Below, piece after piece: positions 1-7,046 of a stretch of 7,046 nt of DNA; the stretch's first letter is position 1; each line of letters opens with the position of its first letter. The stretch spans positions 1 through 7,046 of the IMG/VR virus record IMGVR_UViG_2619619133_000005; one strand, given 5' to 3'. The position numbers and the translations under genes were made by a program. This stretch comes from a virus (Duplodnaviria > Heunggongvirae > Uroviricota > Caudoviricetes). The notes under the pieces were generated by a model. The model did no database searches. It saw only the letters and a program-made list of their open reading frames with translations, and had not been told where the DNA came from.

Positions 1-537
1 ATGGAACCCCTTCGTGAAATAAGAAATCGGCTGCTTAACGGCTGGCAATTATCAAAAATGCATACTTTTGAAGTGGCTGCCAGGCATCAGTCCTTCGCCC
101 TGGCGGCAGAGGAATTGTCGCTGAGCCCCAGTGCGGTAAGTCACCGTATCAATCAGCTGGAAGAAGAATTGGGCATTCAGTTGTTTGTTCGTTCCCATCG
201 CAAAGTGGAATTAACGCACGAGGGGAAACGTGTTTATTGGGCGCTAAAATCGTCGCTGGATACCCTGAACCAGGAAATTCTTGATATCAAAAATCAGGAG
301 TTATCGGGAACGTTAACTCTGTATTCCCGGCCCTCTATCGCCCAATGCTGGTTGGTGCCCGCATTAGGTGACTTTACACGCCGGTATCTAACAGTAAAAG
401 CCGCCGGGGTATGGGCGGGGGGCATTGAAACACCTTCGGTGGAAACTCCATCGGAAGGCTCTAAATTTTTTGGTTTTGACATGGATAACGAATTCATCAG
501 TGGTTTTGATGTAGGGGCATGGGGAGTATTACTCTGA
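1..537 (+). pseudogene. dsdC: LysR-family transcriptional regulator, N-terminal fragment (DsdC-like D-serine deaminase activator), fused to phage-derived sequence
   Basis: The ORF begins at nt 1 and carries a typical LysR HTH (…HTFEVAARHQSFALAAEELSLSPSAVSHRINQLEEELGIQLFVRSHRKVELT…) plus the start of an effector domain (…LTLYSRPSIAQCWLVPALGDFTRRY). It is only 178 aa against roughly 300 for a LysR protein, and the last ~50 codons (LTVKAAGVWAGG…) do not look LysR-like. The junction is therefore near nt ~380. The dsdC name rests on my recollection of the protein and on its position near a P4-type integrase; it is unverified. Confidence 0.6.
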
Positions 538-1265
538 TGGCGAAAAATGACTTTAAAGCGTTTGCAACTGATCGAAATGCCAATGTTATGTCGCAGGAGG
601 AATGGGAAGCGTTGCCTGCGCTTATATCCGGATTTACAGCAGGGAAAGCATCCAGTGCGCAAGTCAATAAGGTTATTCGGCAGGCCAGCTTTATTGCTGC
701 AGCTCTGGCCCAGTTTGTAAGTGATAAAACGCAACGGGATGTGCTTGATAATGGTGATCTGCCCGGTTTTGTTGAATTGCTGGGATCGGGGTTTGCTGTT
801 GAATACCTGAGCCGCAAGAATCCGTTTGGTGATATCAAATCGGATGGCACGGTGAAAACAGCTCTCGAAAACCTTGGTTTGGGAGAAGCGGCAACGAGGA
901 ACGTCGGAACGGATACCGGGCAAGTACCAGATATGAGTAGTTTTACAACGGGGCACTCTGGAGCAGCAGACTGGCCGATTCCTAAATCTGGATGGAGTAA
1001 GGGGCCGGATGGGGTAATTACACAATGGGGTATTTTCGGTTTCCCCGTTGGACAGACAGGGACGAATGTTGTTTTCCCGCTACCTTTCCCCGCGCGGGTC
1101 GAATCAATTACACTGACAATGGCAGATATCCAGGAGTCTCTGCTTTCTCCAGCAACCATGCCTGCTTATGGAGTTAACTCAACTGGTACTTCAAGAACGG
1201 GTTTTACAGCCCGTATGTCAGGCGCCGGTGGGTTTAATCTTTGCTATATAGCGAAAGGGAGATAA
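519..1265 (+). CDS. Phage tail fibre protein, C-terminal portion (short constant region plus variable cassette A)
   Basis: 248-aa ORF whose frame is open from nt 510. It contains the left crossover site inside the codons for ALENLGLGE. Its stop (1263-1265) is followed 4 nt later by a tail-fibre-assembly gene with a GGGAGA ribosome-binding site. No further fibre N-terminus or other structural genes lie upstream. Confidence 0.6.
862..887. repeat. Left 26-bp crossover site for a Pin/Gin/Hin-family invertase (gix/hix/pix-like)
   Basis: CTCTCGAAAACC-TT-GGTTTGGGAGAA has the 12-2-12 architecture and AAACC/GGTTT half-site cores typical of gix/hix sites. Its inner half is a perfect inverted repeat of the inner half of the right site at 2740-2765. 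Confidence 0.6.
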
Positions 1266-1269
1266 CAGA

Positions 1270-1713
1270 ATGAATAAAGTTAAAAGTGTTTACAGCCCGT
1301 CCGAAAATGCAATCTACAACGCAGCGCTATATGAAAGTTATATCAAGGAGGGGACATGGCCGCAGGATGGTATTGAAATCAGCGATGAGGATGCTGTCAG
1401 ATTTAATGGGGGAAATAAGCCAACAGGAAAAATGCTGGGAATGGTTTCAGGGACCCTTGCATGGGTTGATGAGCCGCCGCTTTCACCAGAACAGAAAATA
1501 TCAGATGCAGAAAACATGAAAGCCACATTTCGTGCAAAAGCTGACAGTGAAATATCCTGGCGTCAGGATGCTGTTGATGCTGGTATCGCAACTGATGAAG
1601 AAACTTCAACTCTCACCCAATGGAAGAAATACCGTGTGCTGCTGATGCGTGTTGATACGTCAACAGCACCCGATATTGAATGGCCTACGCCTCCGGCAGC
1701 TCAGGCCAGATGA
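1270..1713 (+). CDS. Tail fibre assembly (chaperone) protein, cognate to cassette A
   Basis: 147 aa, ATG 4 nt after the fibre stop codon, with a GGGAGA ribosome-binding site. The C-terminus (…DTSTAPDIEWPTPP…) is of the type seen in Tfa/Mu U/P2 G chaperones. Confidence 0.7.
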   Translation: MNKVKSVYSPSENAIYNAALYESYIKEGTWPQDGIEISDEDAVRFNGGNKPTGKMLGMVSGTLAWVDEPPLSPEQKISDAENMKATFRAKADSEISWRQDAVDAGIATDEETSTLTQWKKYRVLLMRVDTSTAPDIEWPTPPAAQAR

Positions 1714-2287
1714 CATCAGGCGCGGTGCTGGTATCTGTTGCCGTCACCGCGTCAATGTAATCCAGCACGACGTTAAGTCGGGTTGTTTCTGCCTGCGTCA
1801 GTTTCCGCCCGGCCTGTAATTTCAGCTGAATCAGACTAATGGAAGCCATTGCTGCATCAATCAGTGACTGGCGCTGTGCTTCTGCCGCGTCTACTGCGGC
1901 ACTGTGTTGTGCCTCAGTGTCTGTCACCCATTTCTCACCATCCCATTTATCGTATGGCGTTAACGGGGCGATAGTGGTTGTATTTTCGGGGTAATCACCC
2001 GGAGTTGTGATTTCTTTGGCGTCTCCCGTTTCGGTGTTATAGACGATTTCACCGCGATGGTCTGGCACATATTCCCATGAGTTTAAATCTGCCGAACGGC
2101 AGATTGCATAACCAGCCTTATGTATACCAGGTTCATCCAGACAGGAATATGCCGGGATACCAACACCAACGGCAAGATATTCATTTGAAGTGGAAATATA
2201 TTCCCGAGTTTCACCATCATAGCTATAGACGGTAATATTCCCCGCCTTCGTGGCAATAAGCTCGCTATTTAATACAGCGTTATCCAT
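1685..2287 (-). CDS. Tail fibre assembly (chaperone) protein, cognate to cassette B
   Basis: 200 aa on the minus strand with the same C-terminal motif (…DTSTAPDVIWPELPEA). Its ATG overlaps the stop of the upstream cassette-B ORF by 1 nt (TAATG), suggesting translational coupling. Its 3' end overlaps the converging tfa gene by 29 nt. Confidence 0.7.
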   Translation of the reverse strand: MDNAVLNSELIATKAGNITVYSYDGETREYISTSNEYLAVGVGIPAYSCLDEPGIHKAGYAICRSADLNSWEYVPDHRGEIVYNTETGDAKEITTPGDYPENTTTIAPLTPYDKWDGEKWVTDTEAQHSAAVDAAEAQRQSLIDAAMASISLIQLKLQAGRKLTQAETTRLNVVLDYIDAVTATDTSTAPDVIWPELPEA

Positions 2288-2793
2288 TATGCAGCCCTCA
2301 CGATAAAGTTAAATGCAATATTTCGCGCACGTGTTTCCGTTGATGTTCTGGCAACACGTGATGCATCAAAATAATAATTCGCCTGTTTATATGTACCACC
2401 TGTCGCAATTGATGCGAGATTTGGTGTCAATGTTGAAGAGGTAAATGCGCCGACAGTATTATTATTTGGCCCCGTGGTCATATCCAAAAAGCTACCTGTA
2501 ATATTTTGCAGCGTATCGCTCTGAGCACTCAATAACGCTCGCCCACTGTCCACTCCACGCCCATCATCCCAGCCACGAATAAACTCACCACGTAAATCAG
2601 GCAATTTATTTGTCGGGTAAGCCTTTGCCAGCTCCGGGTATTCTTCAGCAGAAAAAGCTGCACCATTGCATTTCAACCAGCCTGTCGGTGGTGTAGCTGA
2701 AGGCCACGGAACAGGCACACCAACCGGTAATGCAGAGCCTTCTCCCAAACCAACGTTTATGAAAATGCAGAAATAACGATCAAATGGCATCAT
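2287..2793 (-). CDS. Alternative tail-fibre C-terminal variable cassette B (silent in this orientation)
   Basis: The minus-strand ORF encodes …INVGLGEGSALPVGVPVPWPSATPPTGW…NIAFNFIVRAA, a typical fibre distal-tip sequence. The GLGE codons coincide with the right crossover site, so genuine coding is about 2290-2753. The leading MMPFDRYFCIF… is read-through of sequence outside the segment and has no convincing start signal. Confidence 0.55.
   Translation of the reverse strand: MMPFDRYFCIFINVGLGEGSALPVGVPVPWPSATPPTGWLKCNGAAFSAEEYPELAKAYPTNKLPDLRGEFIRGWDDGRGVDSGRALLSAQSDTLQNITGSFLDMTTGPNNNTVGAFTSSTLTPNLASIATGGTYKQANYYFDASRVARTSTETRARNIAFNFIVRAA
2740..2765. repeat. Right 26-bp crossover site for the invertase
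   Basis: TTCTCCCAAACC-AA-CGTTTATGAAAA. Its reverse complement shares 19 of the 20 inner positions with the left site. It sits about 55 bp upstream of the invertase start codon. Confidence 0.6.
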
Positions 2794-2819
2794 TCCTGCT
2801 TTTGTCAGGGAGATCTACC

Positions 2820-3374
2820 ATGCTTATTGGCTATGTACGTGTGTCAACAAATGACCAGAACACAGATCTACAACGTAATGCGCTGAACTGTGCAGGATGC
2901 GAGCTTATTTTTGAAGACAAGATAAGCGGTACAAAGTCCGAAAGGCCGGGACTGAAAAAACTGCTCAGGACATTATCGGCAGGTGACACTCTGGTCGTCT
3001 GGAAGCTGGATCGGCTGGGGCGTAGTATGCGGCATCTTGTCGTGCTGGTGGAGGAGTTGCGCGAACGAGGCATCAACTTTCGTAGTCTGACGGATTCAAT
3101 TGATACCAGCACACCAATGGGACGCTTTTTCTTTCATGTGATGGGTGCCCTGGCTGAAATGGAGCGTGAACTGATTGTTGAACGAACAAAAGTTGGACTG
3201 GAAGCTGCTCGCGCACAGGGACGAATTGGTGGACGTCGCCCCAAACTTACACCAGAACAATGGGAGCAGGCCGGACGATTAATTGCAGCAGGAATTCCTC
3301 GCCAGAAGGTAGCGATCATCTATGATATTGGTGTATCGACTTTGTATAAGAGGTTTCCAGCCAGGATTATATAA
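2820..3374 (+). CDS. pin: Site-specific DNA invertase, serine recombinase of the Pin/Gin/Hin/Cin family
   Basis: 184 aa starting MLIGYVRVSTNDQNTDLQRNAL…, carrying the catalytic Ser of the resolvase/invertase N-terminal domain and a C-terminal HTH (…GIPRQKVAIIYDIGVSTLYKRFP). A GGGAG ribosome-binding site lies 7 nt upstream of the ATG at 2820. The ORF-track start at 2784 is an artefactual 12-codon extension. Confidence 0.9.
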   Translation: MLIGYVRVSTNDQNTDLQRNALNCAGCELIFEDKISGTKSERPGLKKLLRTLSAGDTLVVWKLDRLGRSMRHLVVLVEELRERGINFRSLTDSIDTSTPMGRFFFHVMGALAEMERELIVERTKVGLEAARAQGRIGGRRPKLTPEQWEQAGRLIAAGIPRQKVAIIYDIGVSTLYKRFPARII

Positions 3375-3411
3375 AACCGCAGACACGCCGTATGCAAGAC
3401 GTGCTGCGGTT
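3375..3411. terminator. Candidate stem-loop terminator between the convergent pin and cargo genes
   Basis: An imperfect ~12-bp stem (AACCGCAGACACG … CGTGCTGCGGTT) starts 1 nt after the pin stop codon. The minus-strand side is followed by a U-rich run (UUUAUAUAAU); the plus-strand side is only weakly U-rich. Confidence 0.3.
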
Positions 3412-3570
3412 GGCTGATGCACTTTCGAGAGTGTATGTATTGAATTATTTCCAGCCGTTACTGATTTTACGTATTTTTTGTATGAGAGGAGTTGCACCAC
3501 CTCTTAAGCATAATTTGTTAGAATCATGGCAGCACAATAGCCATATATCCAATATAAAATACTTAACCTT

Positions 3571-4470
3571 CTAATCATTATGGAGTATTTGATCGCCGTA
3601 TGGCCAGCCATTTTCCCCAGGAAGGGTCATACCTAACATTGGCATAATACTAAGTTGTCCAATGGTAAATCCTAGAGCACTTGTATTACTGATTCCGGCA
3701 TAGGTCATATCAAGGGGGTTAGACTCTGAGCTGGACATAAAAAGATTTCTTGTGCCAATTCTATTCGCCATTGAGAACTGAATATGCCCACCAATTGTAT
3801 TTACGGTGTCCTGAGATATCCAGTTGTTTAACGCGATAAATGGCGCCCGCCACCAGTTAAGCGTGCCATTCTCAAAACGCCCCCTCGTCATCTCAATATC
3901 TTCCCGAAACTGCTGCTTTCTGTCTCCCAAGACTACCGGGGTACCTGTTGTCAGGTCAAGGCAGTCCTCAATTACAAGATTAGTGGGGTTTGATGGGGTG
4001 TTGTAGATCTTAATGATTTTATGTACCTGTGTTCTGAAACAGAATCCGTAAATAATCATCTCCGTTGCTACAGAACGGGGAAAAAACTGGCCAATATCCA
4101 GTATAAATTTTTCCGCGATTCCCTTTGTTAAAACTGCAATTTCATAAAGACTCGGGTAACTATCATAAGTCAACTCCGGCTGCTGAACATCATAATAATT
4201 AACTTCATGTAATGAAGATAATGATACGGCAAGTAACTCCTTCACATTTATACCGATCATTGTTCCTCCTGCAAAGCCGAAACCAAACTCCATAATTTTT
4301 TCCGGAGATAGACGGTATATGTCATTGGAGCGAATAACTGATACCGGAATCGAGAATAGTTTAGGACAGTGATTTGTCATTACACTTTCATGCTGGGTGA
4401 TTCTTGAGTCGCTTACGGCCCAGATACTTTCCCCTTCTTCCCTGTTTAGCCAGCAGGCTATTGCTGTCAT
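3571..4470 (-). CDS. Hypothetical cargo protein, 299 aa, with possible N-terminal-nucleophile (HslV/proteasome-beta-like) hydrolase motifs
   Basis: The start is set at the internal Met (MTAIACWLN…) because a GGGGG ribosome-binding site lies 6 nt upstream; the ORF-track start at 4608 is a 46-codon extension. Motifs seen by eye against my recollection of HslV: Thr directly after Met, AVSDSRIT (HslV IAGDGQAT), SVM…K with Asp-to-Lys spacing of 16, GFAGGT (identical to HslV), and TTGTPVV (HslV ITGNGDVV). The protein has large insertions relative to HslV. Confidence 0.6.
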   Translation of the reverse strand: MTAIACWLNREEGESIWAVSDSRITQHESVMTNHCPKLFSIPVSVIRSNDIYRLSPEKIMEFGFGFAGGTMIGINVKELLAVSLSSLHEVNYYDVQQPELTYDSYPSLYEIAVLTKGIAEKFILDIGQFFPRSVATEMIIYGFCFRTQVHKIIKIYNTPSNPTNLVIEDCLDLTTGTPVVLGDRKQQFREDIEMTRGRFENGTLNWWRAPFIALNNWISQDTVNTIGGHIQFSMANRIGTRNLFMSSSESNPLDMTYAGISNTSALGFTIGQLSIMPMLGMTLPGENGWPYGDQILHND

Positions 4471-4871
4471 TGAAAACCCCCTTTTAAGTAAAAAAATCAG
4501 ATTCAGATAGTGCATACATAATTTAGTCAAGTCATCTCTTTTAAGACGCATTGAGAAATGGTTGCTCAAGGTGCGCCAGTGAACGCGCACGAAAATAACT
4601 TCTTGCATTTCCCATTACACTCTGACTTTAGGGCCGCGTTAGATTTTAACATGGTGGCCGTGCATCCATTTAAATTGGTAATCTGGAGAATGAGTAACGC
4701 TGAATAGATTAACAATCTATGCGACTAACGGCCCTTAAAAGCGCAGCTCATAACATCGAATTTTACCAGTTTAGTCATTTTTAAAAAGTGCCCGAAAAAT
4801 GTTGTCCACGATTTGTGCTCTACGTCCCATCTTGACCTACTCCCTGATAATTCACTCAGAAGGCGGTTAGC

Positions 4872-4901
4872 AATGTCCGTTAAGTGCTCACAACGGACAT
4901 T
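4872..4901. promoter_or_regulatory. Perfect 10-bp inverted repeat with 10-nt spacer (AATGTCCGTT-N10-AACGGACATT) in the long intergenic region
   Basis: Seen directly in the sequence. It has no U-tract on either strand, so it is not a canonical intrinsic terminator. It may be a protein-binding palindrome or an RNA stem. Confidence 0.25.
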
Positions 4902-4951
4902 CAGCCCACTAAATCCGACCGTGTCGCTCAATATGCGGACAGGTTGTAGTG

Positions 4952-5554
4952 CTAACTGCATTGTAGCTGTGAGATTTCACCATCGATGGCTTCTATAACC
5001 TGTTTATAGCGGAGCATGACCTCATCATGAATCATCATTAATCCGCGGCCGTACTCTGTGGCTAGGATTGTGTATCTTTTCAGGTGTGCAAGATGTTCTT
5101 TGTTGCCAGTAATGTCACTTGCAACCTGCGTGGAGTCCAGCCGTTCGATAAGCGCATTATTGCCGCGATAGGAATCAATTAGGCTTCTTGCGCTTGTATA
5201 AAAAGCCACAATTTTTGAGAGTGTTTCTCTATGAACTTCAGGTAGGGATGCCGAGTTGGCTTCATAGAACGTGAAGTAGTTTTGAGTAATGGGGAAAATG
5301 TTATCGAACGGTGAGTTCCGGTCGTATTTTTCGATTTCTTCTGCCATTCTGGCCTGATACAGTTTAATCAGTGAGTCTATTTCCTCTCTGACACCCAATA
5401 GCGTTGTTATACGCTTCTCTCTGGCCGCTGTTGCCTGCTGTTTTGCCTGCTGTTTCACCTGAGTTGTCACTCCTATCATCGTGAAACAGCCACCTAAAAG
5501 AGCTGCTAAAAATGCGGAGATGAGATCTGAATATTCGTGCCAGAAGGTTAGCAT
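4952..5554 (-). CDS. Hypothetical cargo protein, 200 aa, with one N-terminal transmembrane helix and a helical, charged soluble domain
   Basis: The ORF has a hydrophobic N-terminal segment (DLISAFLAALLGGCFTMIGVTT), then a Q/K-rich linker and a helical-looking domain. It sits on the same strand as, and upstream of, the HslV-like gene. The ribosome-binding site is weak (GGAA). Confidence 0.55.
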   Translation of the reverse strand: MLTFWHEYSDLISAFLAALLGGCFTMIGVTTQVKQQAKQQATAAREKRITTLLGVREEIDSLIKLYQARMAEEIEKYDRNSPFDNIFPITQNYFTFYEANSASLPEVHRETLSKIVAFYTSARSLIDSYRGNNALIERLDSTQVASDITGNKEHLAHLKRYTILATEYGRGLMMIHDEVMLRYKQVIEAIDGEISQLQCS

Positions 5555-5570
5555 GGCGAAAATTCCATTG

Positions 5571-5593
5571 GGTTAAATTATGTCTATTTAACC
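5571..5593. promoter_or_regulatory. Operator-like palindrome (GGTTAAAT-N7-ATTTAACC) 17-40 bp upstream of the membrane-protein gene start
   Basis: A perfect 8-bp inverted repeat seen directly, overlapped by a second partial palindrome (AATTATGT/ACATAATg). Its position suits a repressor-binding site in the promoter region of the cargo gene. Confidence 0.25.
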
Positions 5594-5888
5594 ACATAAT
5601 GATACGAAGATACCTTCCAAAATGTTGCTATGACCCCATCTGTTGTTGCCTGGCTGGTGACGTGTCTGGGTATTAGCACCGTGCTCTCTCATTATCTAAG
5701 TCTGGGCCAATCCTCGTTCATAACAGGCATTCACTTCAGTCATGGCAGAAAGGTATGCATGCTGGAGAAGTCATGAAAGAAAAGAAGACTTCTGCCTCGT
5801 TTGTCATCACTGTTATCTTCTCATTGATTATGCAGGTCATAGTGGGGACACACAAAGCTTTGTACTATCCGATAGTGGTTAAGGTGGA

Positions 5889-7046
5889 TCACTCCCCCTT
5901 TTCATCAAGCCAATCCGCCCACCACTGCATCATTTCTCTGCGCTTATCGAGATACTGAGCATGGTTGTAAATACCGCGCACAGATCCGCCGTTGGCATGT
6001 GCCAGTTGCACTTCAATAGCGTCAGCAGGCCATTCGTGCTCGTTCATAATCGTGCTGAATTCATGCCTGAATCCGTGACCGCTTTCCAGACCCTCATAGC
6101 CGATTTGTTTGATCACAAGTAGCACCGCGTTCTCGCAAATTGGCTTCTTCTTATCGTTGCGCCCGGAAAAAACAAACTCTGATACTGGTTTAGTGATTGA
6201 GCTTAGTGTAGTGAGAAGTTCAACCACCTGGTCTGACATCGGGACCACATGAATTTTGCGTCCCTTCATTACACTGGCGTCGATGGTGATAATCCTGTTT
6301 TCAAAATCGACGTTCTTCCATAGCATGGAGCGAAGCTCTTTCGTTCTTAGGGCTGTGTAGCGCAAAACTTTAGTCGCAATGAGCGATACGATACTTCCTG
6401 AAAATGTTGCCAGTGCTTTATTGAATGCCGGGATCTGGTCTGCAGGAAGAAACGGGAAGTTTTTCTTGCGGTATCCCTTCATGGCGTCAGCAAGGTCAGG
6501 TGCCGGGTTATATTTAGCCCTACCAGTGACAATAGCGTAACGGAAAACCTCGCCGCATCTTCTGCGGGCTTTATTTGCTCGCTCCATTGCACCGCGATCT
6601 TCAAATCTGCGGATTACTTCCAGCAGTTGCATCGGCTCAATCTCCTGAATTTCAAGGCCGCCGATGATAGGTAAAATGTCGTCATCAAACATTTTTGCAA
6701 GTTCAGTCGCATACCCTACTGACCATACTTGCTTCTTGTGCTCGTACCATTCCTTGTAAATCGCACTAAATGAATTGTTGTTAGACGAAGCCTTTTTCGC
6801 CTTTACCGGATCGATGCCAACCGAGATGTCTTTCCTCGCAGTCCATGCCTTATCCCTTGCTTCCTGCAAAGTCATAAGCGGATATTTTCCGACGGTCAGG
6901 ATTTTCTCCTTACCGTCAATCTTGTAGCGAAGCTGCCATACCTTTTTCCCGGATACAGGAACATAAAGGTACAGGCCATTACCATCGAGAAGGCGGTATG
7001 GTTTTTCTTTCGGCTTTGCTGCTTCAATCTGCTTAACGGTGAGCAT
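5889..7046 (-). CDS. intS: Phage integrase, tyrosine recombinase of the P4 type
   Basis: 385-aa ORF starting with the ATG at the window edge. The N-terminus (MLTVKQIEAAKPKEKPYRLLDGNGLYLYVPVSGKKVWQLRYK…) is P4-like, and the C-terminal catalytic region has …GHGFRHEFST… and …RGIYNHAQY (His-x-x-Arg and Tyr nucleophile). The intS name is inferred from length and from proximity to dsdC as at the E. coli argW prophage site; it is unverified. Upstream signals lie outside the window. Confidence 0.85.
   Translation of the reverse strand: MLTVKQIEAAKPKEKPYRLLDGNGLYLYVPVSGKKVWQLRYKIDGKEKILTVGKYPLMTLQEARDKAWTARKDISVGIDPVKAKKASSNNNSFSAIYKEWYEHKKQVWSVGYATELAKMFDDDILPIIGGLEIQEIEPMQLLEVIRRFEDRGAMERANKARRRCGEVFRYAIVTGRAKYNPAPDLADAMKGYRKKNFPFLPADQIPAFNKALATFSGSIVSLIATKVLRYTALRTKELRSMLWKNVDFENRIITIDASVMKGRKIHVVPMSDQVVELLTTLSSITKPVSEFVFSGRNDKKKPICENAVLLVIKQIGYEGLESGHGFRHEFSTIMNEHEWPADAIEVQLAHANGGSVRGIYNHAQYLDKRREMMQWWADWLDEKGE

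Follow-up and report, generated by a model that had tools for sequence, protein, structure and literature searches.

To our knowledge, no function has been assigned to any bacterial homolog of the proteasome besides HslV, Anbu, BPH, and connectase. The proteasome β subunit, HslV, Anbu, and BPH (MEROPS T1) have in common an alpha-beta-beta-alpha sandwich fold of the N-terminal nucleophile (Ntn) class and a set of Thr/Asp/Lys active-site residues, which in the proteasome itself form the signature Thr1/Asp17/Lys33 (PMC8665760). Beyond these, a catalog of divergent bacterial homologs that preserve the triad distinguishes GPH/'DGH', DPH, RPC, and PPH (Fuchs, Alva, & Lupas, 2021; PMC8665760). Some of these subfamilies are restricted to proteobacteria, some bear extra C-terminal domains without a match, and some are phage-borne; neither function nor informative gene context was reported for the new homologs (PMC8665760). 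A protein of this kind is very probably encoded in the DNA considered here, a 7,046-nt stretch of Escherichia coli prophage sequence (IMG/VR record IMGVR_UViG_2619619133_000005, positions 1 to 7,046), referred to in its entirety as the window. Two minus-strand genes in it concern us. Gene B (3571-4470, 299 aa) encodes a predicted proteasome-beta/HslV-like Ntn hydrolase with a C-terminal extension of ~65 aa, and gene A (4952-5554, 200 aa) encodes a protein with an N-terminal transmembrane (TM) anchor and a predicted cytoplasmic four-helix bundle. Both are hypothetical proteins in RefSeq, as annotated by the Prokaryotic Genome Annotation Pipeline (PGAP). The balance of evidence tips slightly toward an explanation, its defense role included, in which the two genes fill a variable prophage cargo slot as independent modules, with B acting as a stand-alone threonine protease of conflict or defense.

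The B reading frame is best placed at 4470, where the motif M-T-[AS]-I recurs in 27 of 27 close homologs, and a GGGGG ribosome-binding site lies 8 nt 5′ of this start. A longer, 345-aa version beginning at an in-frame ATG at 4608, and so annotated in some strains, was rejected: the Pantoea orthologue has a frameshift in the 46 additional codons, and homologs begin at the Met-Thr dipeptide. Ratios of nonsynonymous to synonymous substitution (dN/dS) fall between 0.11 and 0.20, or about 0.15, for B and A alike in between-genus pairs with enough divergence, and this purifying selection therefore identifies both as real genes and not chance open reading frames (ORFs). An exhaustive search with a hidden Markov model places B in a family of 865 clusters at 50% identity (E<=1e-3), nearly all 265-300 aa long and aligned from residue 1, drawn mostly from gamma- and betaproteobacteria. 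Conservation was assessed in 109 diverse members, 19-60% identical to B. Five residues, D21, K37, G182, P210, and G228, are invariant among them, and M1, T2, W7, W17, G63, G68, P106, G142, C144, G227, and G271 are at least 90% conserved. The spacing of 16 between D21 and K37 equals that between Asp17 and Lys33 of the proteasome. In its predicted structure, B adopts the alpha-beta-beta-alpha Ntn sandwich of the proteasome/HslV type, with helices at residues 70-84 and 108-127 both placed ahead of the second sheet, and ends in the ~65-residue extension, which is specific to the family. By fold and predicted active-site residues, then, B is with high probability a proteasome-like Ntn hydrolase. 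Removal of the initiator methionine would expose Thr2 as the N-terminal nucleophile, with Asp21 and Lys37 completing a proteasome-type triad, and we infer an active peptidase that, by analogy with its relatives, is probably oligomeric. A second and commoner E. coli lineage of the family is represented by a 61-member cluster (P0058; 291 aa; E. coli, Enterobacter hormaechei, and Atlantibacter), one member of which is present on 107 contigs.

The structural likeness of B to the MEROPS T1 enzymes, which rests on a model and on residue patterns, is not mirrored in detectable sequence similarity. Scans of Pfam, NCBIfam, PHROGs, and PADLOC gave no significant match to B, and PDB sequence searches with narrow and wide B profiles gave none either. 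An hhalign comparison with E. coli HslV returned a probability of 0.3%. None of the 109 family members is covered by any Pfam model, and a single one touches PF00227, at E=0.08; PADLOC-DB v2 likewise contains no match for B or for its distant relatives L023 and L045. B further departs from these enzymes in its C-terminal extension and in its genomic home, which is a mobile element and not a housekeeping operon. Genomic context was surveyed by tblastn and neighbor clustering in 62 B-bearing loci, which dereplicate to 42 groups, and in these 42 neighborhoods B has neither HslU nor any other AAA+ unfoldase beside it. Because it lacks both a sequence match and an HslU partner, B falls outside the HslV family proper. 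The HslV-like label that the preliminary description attached to B is thus apt for its fold and active site, and misleading as a statement of family membership.

Among the cataloged subfamilies, PPH and RPC lack helix H2, and PPH is only ~140 aa long (PMC8665760). The 299-aa B possesses both H1 and H2 and is, because of H2 in its model, incompatible with either. GPH/'DGH', the gammaproteobacterial subfamily (representative WP_152342571.1), is compatible in taxonomy and in its unmatched C-terminal extension, and B may belong to it, the comparison having been made by description only. A cluster look-up meant to connect B with the accession numbers of that study (PMC8665760) did not turn them up.

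The B family spans 865 clusters, and none of Pfam, NCBIfam, PADLOC, or PHROGs has a curated model for it; what it now acquires is a consistent genomic context. Its members occupy accessory slots of prophages, satellites, plasmids, and defense islands, and one subclade lies tightly beside the cyclases of cyclic oligonucleotide-based anti-phage signaling systems (CBASS); neither association appears in the earlier catalog (PMC8665760). Across genera, the neighbors of B are repeatedly known or candidate defense genes. The Pantoea protein, 80% identical to B, is encoded in a prophage and adjoins Cap15 and a cGAS/DncV-like nucleotidyltransferase (CD-NTase). In Providencia, the gene is carried by a P2-like prophage, flanked by two ogr genes and beside the candidate defense gene PDC-S59, while the Serratia marcescens copy, part of a lambdoid prophage, has a PDC-S33 RelA/SpoT protein and a cI-like repressor as its two neighbors. 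The Citrobacter copy has CbtA/CbeA, an integrase, and Psu for company in a P4-like element; that of Rahnella occupies the moron site of a P2-like prophage, preceded by a 205-aa gene; and that of Photobacterium has an HNH nuclease on one side and an Mrr nuclease on the other. Further settings include a conjugative element, where B stands beside TraC, a contig with a HEPN neighbor, and a locus with an FRG/PDC-S15 neighbor. B without A is also found on plasmids and in non-phage defense islands. In a Pseudoxanthomonas locus (L025:6198-8873), a HipA_C kinase gene and a gene of 150 aa precede the B-family gene by 92 bp, and a capV-cyclase pair lies upstream in divergent orientation.

The tie to CBASS is found among distant members of the family, 25-47% identical to B. 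A CD-NTase, of one or another of several cyclase models, lies within 4.5 kb of B in 9 of the 42 groups; the proportion is inflated, because the CBASS-linked subclade served as the seed of the metagenome scan. In five of these nine groups, the CD-NTase is directly upstream of B on the same strand, at distances ranging from overlap to 322 bp. Cyclases with an AGS-C fusion, which recur in the loci described next, typify Type I CBASS (bioRxiv 10.1101/2023.05.21.541620). Two metagenomic loci have capV, which encodes a patatin effector, followed by CD-NTase(AGS-C) and then B, with 23 bp before B in one and an ORF overlap in the other. The coordinates of this operon-like arrangement are L045:2546-5873, L047:1304-4634, and L048:44-2357; one more cyclase and a PDC-S15/FRG gene are present in L045. 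Burkholderia sp. LMG 32019 (L023:2695-8867) presents three tandem CBASS units composed of cyclase and E2, cyclase and a four-transmembrane (4TM) effector, and cyclase(AGS-C) and B, so that B there holds an effector-like position. Pseudomonas cedrina (L024) similarly has a cyclase(AGS-C) followed by B. On a conjugative plasmid of Vibrio nigripulchritudo (L079:5043-7471), B precedes a CBASS cyclase, at a distance of 60 bp, and then a two-transmembrane (2TM) effector; a SLATT and reverse-transcriptase pair and a DEAD-box helicase lie in the surroundings. Distant relatives of B thus stand at the effector or accessory position of Type I CBASS, beside CD-NTase(AGS-C), CapV, 2TM, and 4TM genes, and a cyclase within the B operon is confined to these distant-subclade loci (L023, L024, L045-L048, L079). 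The window itself contains no CD-NTase cyclase and hence no CBASS of its own, as is true of the other E. coli-clade loci apart from the Pantoea neighbor. No proteasome-like CBASS component is included in PADLOC or was found in the literature, and a literature search on proteasome-like or Ntn proteins in phage defense found nothing relevant.

By guilt by association, B is a candidate anti-phage threonine protease. An immune role is proposed because the family is recurrently placed among defense genes and because its distant subclade lies in or beside Type I CBASS operons. In the scheme favored here, the slot would be the integrase-proximal end of an argW-integrated prophage remnant, in which two single-gene modules were joined by recombination. 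Module A (5720 to about 4870) would comprise its own upstream region, a 3′ hairpin, and a putative inner-membrane-anchored protein; module B (4838-3571) would comprise its own leader of ~370 bp and the predicted proteasome-beta-like threonine hydrolase. B may serve the lysogen by cleaving a phage or host protein upon infection, as the Lit protease of e14 does. Lit is the model of a lone protease that confers exclusion (abortive infection), and the parallel extends to genetic setting: Lit and the predicted protease B are each a single prophage-borne gene in a cryptic E. coli prophage, and both prophages carry a pin invertase and tail-fiber genes. The two differ in fold and catalytic type, Lit being a zinc metalloprotease that is triggered by the T4 Gol peptide and targets EF-Tu. 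For A, the simplest reading, and the weakest inference of the scheme, is that it may act separately as a lysogenic-conversion or membrane-level exclusion protein. A broader proposal is more tentative and, at present, rather doubtful: that the B family as a whole constitutes new immune proteasome-like proteases, serving as a CBASS effector or accessory in some lineages and as a stand-alone module in enterobacterial prophages, satellites, and plasmids. If true, these ideas would give bacterial immunity a threonine-protease mechanism and CBASS a new type of accessory or effector, a new enzymatic arm, and would provide the first functional role for an 'orphan' bacterial proteasome homolog. The E. 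coli B is a 900-bp gene with its native leader and a tractable host, which makes the defense hypothesis directly testable.

Several considerations weigh against a defense protease. Proteasome homologs can be ligases, as connectase is, or inactive. Neither A nor B is matched by any PADLOC model, both are absent from 50,697 sequenced phage genomes, and no promoter has been identified for B. Mobile-element hotspots carry anti-defense genes and unrelated morons as well as defense genes. The seeding of the metagenome scan, as noted, swells the CBASS count, and the CBASS link may not transfer to the E. coli clade at all because, the Pantoea neighbor excepted, no cyclase is nearby. Lastly, the two genes travel together between E. 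coli prophages, with 99% identity, so a functional link between A and B at the strain level can still be envisaged.

The principal rival to a defense role is that B counters or modulates immunity, either as a negative regulator of CBASS-type signaling, following the logic of Cap3, or as a counter-defense protease by which the prophage would destroy a defense protein of the host. Such a role draws on the presence of B in CBASS operons that already hold a canonical effector, CapV or a 2TM protein, on a position inside these operons that fits an accessory or regulatory function, and on the anti-defense genes found at the same kind of hotspot. Yet the cyclase(AGS-C) genes of the Burkholderia and Pseudomonas loci have no effector candidate other than B alongside. 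In the E. coli clade, moreover, B lies at lysogenic-conversion positions (by int, by cI, and at P2/P4 hotspots), outside early lytic modules and in none of the phage genomes searched. Counter-immunity is accordingly regarded as unlikely, if the most credible of the alternatives.

Whether A and B form a pair is a separate question, and the preliminary description had raised the possibility of a membrane effector controlled by a protease. The census speaks against it. Only in the E. coli cassette group, out of the 42, does an A homolog occur within about 4-5 kb of B, and even there one locus (L053) has B at 91% nucleotide identity and no A gene, keeping just the loop and the 3′ arm of A's hairpin; A is therefore dispensable even among the closest relatives. 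No recurrent partner gene of any kind emerged for the B family from the 42 groups. Conversely, A is found without B in a Serratia nevei chromosomal island, accompanied by an unrelated 261-aa gene and then Septu PtuA/PtuB, in Dickeya, at a Cronobacter prophage end after umuDC, in Pantoea varia and Biostraticola, and on 33 IncFIB plasmids of ~110 kb from Enterobacter, Citrobacter, and Salmonella that have phage genes aboard. The homologs also diverge differently, those of A being mostly 85-96% identical and those of B 30-85%. A Rahnella gene of 205 aa, located 5′ of B, was considered as an analog of A and set aside, being unrelated to A and soluble. When co-occurrence of the two families was checked across genomes, as had been recommended, they proved not to be co-conserved, which sets A and B apart from two-gene systems that couple a protease to a membrane effector with gasdermin-type logic. 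In all likelihood, the two genes are independent of each other. Each occurs without the other across many loci, and the first reading is corrected accordingly: A and B are to be considered singly and not only as a pair.

The architecture of the DNA between them leads to the same view. The preliminary description drew attention to a spacer of 481 bp, a length that holds because B starts at 4470 rather than at 4608, and proposed either independent regulation or an unannotated small element. Homology comparisons show a composite spacer, consisting of an apparent 3′ hairpin of A and a putative B leader of ~370 bp. The leader (4471-4838, minus strand), presumed to hold the promoter and the 5′ untranslated region, travels with B, being 76% identical to the region upstream of the Pantoea orthologue and also kept in L053. 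Its Jukes-Cantor distance from Pantoea is 0.29, against a synonymous divergence (dS) of 0.75 in the adjoining B gene, or ~2.6 times slower; divergence below that of the synonymous sites of B suggests that the leader is constrained and regulatory. On the minus strand of the leader, there is no consensus sigma-70 promoter, and consensus scans for promoters and terminators stayed at background level. Toward A lies a 10-bp perfect inverted repeat (4872-4901, minus strand), ~50 nt past the A stop codon, which reads from the sequence as AATGTCCGTT, a 10-nt loop, and AACGGACATT. This hairpin is kept downstream of A in eight loci, where 78.8% of cells are paired compared to 32-44% in slid registers. 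It shows one compensatory pair, and because its covariation is no greater than that of shuffles, it is claimed as a conserved palindrome only. A run of T follows it in Cronobacter, and on this account the hairpin is probably the terminator of A.

The boundaries of homology fall inside the spacer and divide A's hairpin from B's leader, which bears out the suggestion of independently organized units. Homology to the A module from other loci stops at 4949, 4906, and 4886 (three independent loci) or at 4833, and homology to the B module begins at 4838 in Pantoea or at 4890 in L053. The breakpoints at 4886-4890 coincide with the loop of the inverted repeat, pointing tentatively to the hairpin region as a favored place for cassette exchange and a repeated breakpoint of recombination; neither the 4833-4840 nor the 4886-4890 breakpoints yielded a recombinase site. 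The notion of a small element in the spacer found no support, as the spacer has no Rfam match, its folding as RNA is not unusual (z = 0.24), and spacer and leader contain no conserved small ORF. A 78-aa ORF at 4725-4961 and 49-aa ORFs in the leader were dismissed: they span the module junction or show ~50% amino acid identity at ~78% nucleotide identity, and they match no family.

Against this background, the proposal that A and B make up a functional two-gene system, in which protease B would serve as infection sensor or substrate processor and A as the membrane effector or anchor, can be judged. The genes are adjacent on the same strand, and they share a block of 2.49 kb (3377-5866) that recurs at 99% identity in two E. 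coli prophage types and on a plasmid. In addition, A's hairpin lacks a U-tract in the window, so that read-through into B is possible. These points are met by the restriction of the pairing to one group of 42, by the absence of A from L053 within that very group, by A's appearance without B in every other context examined, by module boundaries inside the spacer, by the unlike divergence profiles, and by the Rahnella gene upstream of B, which is unrelated to A and encodes a soluble protein. A dedicated A-B system is, on this evidence, improbable.

Taken singly, A conforms to the earlier description of a single-pass membrane protein with a helical soluble domain. Its hydrophobicity peaks in a 19-residue window from residue 11, and its one hydrophobic segment, the anchor, is read as residues 11-31 (Kyte-Doolittle 2.16). 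The anchor is flanked by a net charge of -2 N-terminally and +4 C-terminally, from which the positive-inside rule predicts an N-out, C-in topology. The AlphaFold2 model shows a helix through residues 2-71 followed by a helical bundle at 95-199. Profile searches define a family of 38 clusters, found in Enterobacterales only and without Pfam annotation; truncated copies exist. Like B, A has no significant match in the Pfam, NCBIfam, PHROGs, and PADLOC scans. The sensor domains 4HB_MCP and TorS give generic matches to A, among which designed bundles score best, and A's bundle differs from these in being predicted, again by the positive-inside rule, to be cytoplasmic rather than periplasmic. A resemblance to anchors of the ZorB/MotB type was also rejected, the ZorB match being sub-threshold, confined to the TM helix, and not significant across 5027 models, and a lipobox reading of the sequence LGGC was abandoned with the finding that its Cys is not conserved. 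The presumed promoter region of A (5555-5720, minus strand) is conserved together with the gene in other genera, the upstream DNA homology reaching 5720-5721 in the loci of Dickeya, Cronobacter, and one Enterobacter plasmid and 5658 in Serratia loci. The distant A homologs of Pantoea varia and Biostraticola (39% identity) each have a conserved 108-aa gene 64 bp downstream, 58% identical between the two (L080:5700-6026 and L082:5700-6026) and absent from the window; this subclade of A may have a partner gene of its own.

A further alternative denies B any part in conflict and casts it as a protease of phage physiology or of housekeeping type, which would turn over a repressor or associate with the host HslU. 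HslU is available in E. coli, and B not only has the HslV/proteasome fold but also starts directly with Met-Thr, as HslV does. The absence of sequence similarity to HslV (in the hhalign comparison and among NCBIfam and Pfam models) argues otherwise, as do the lack of a recurring AAA+ partner in the neighborhoods, the occurrence of B in non-phage defense islands and on plasmids, and the additional C-terminal segment that HslV lacks. The odds of such a role are low. That A and B are simply decaying remnants without current function, as the truncation of the window's prophage by fusion of the 5′ end of dsdC to a phage gene and the truncated A copies might be taken to indicate, is highly implausible given the low dN/dS of both genes across genera, their intact frames, the invariant catalytic residues, and their spread over many genera and element types.

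The prophage that carries these genes can be described through its relatives. The window derives from E. coli; over 810-7046 it matches strain NADC1036 at 99.9% identity, and over 3300-5900 at 100%. As a whole it is present in none of the complete E. coli genomes in the collection. The NADC1036 counterpart forms one end of a prophage whose baseplate and tail-fiber genes are of Mu/P2 type and which is integrated at a tRNA-Arg adjoining yfdC. Coordinates, strand, and order of A and B there match RefSeq, in agreement with their initial placement as same-strand genes between pin and int. PGAP annotation of the identical sequence gives a pinE-type DNA invertase (2820-3374, plus strand) on one side, outside the cargo, and on the other the prophage integrase intS (5889-7046, minus strand), which adjoins the tRNA-Arg gene argW. 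The A+B block is rare in E. coli, with 7 carriers among 5426 complete genomes. In argW prophages it lies beside intS, and in a lambdoid prophage near torT it is placed terminally, one copy of this second type being on plasmid pSM107_MCR. The integrase-proximal slot varies in content from strain to strain, in line with the prophage cargo that had been proposed there: it holds B and A in the window, an XF1762-family gene and a hypothetical gene in MEI1A, and, in E. coli TL20, A together with a fragment of IS3 and, where B would be, a Lit-like protein of 445 aa. This hypothetical protein of TL20 (L004:5296-6633) weakly matches Lit and PD-Lambda-2_B (E about 6e-4), a sign that B's slot there accommodates protease-type cargo of another kind.

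At the opposite end of the window, an ORF at 1-540 is chimeric. An N-terminal part of ~125 aa, presumably from DsdC, a LysR-type regulator, is joined on its C-terminal side to the last portion of a phage baseplate or YmfQ-like protein. It appears that a deletion fusing dsdC to a tail gene truncated the prophage of the window, and this junction is found in no complete E. coli genome of the collection. Between this ORF and the cargo, the segment 1270-2793, together with the invertase gene at 2820-3374, forms a typical Pin-invertible tail-fiber switch beside pinE, with tail-fiber C-termini and assembly genes arranged in two convergent sets, at 1270-1713 on the plus strand and at 1685-2287 and 2287-2793 on the minus strand.

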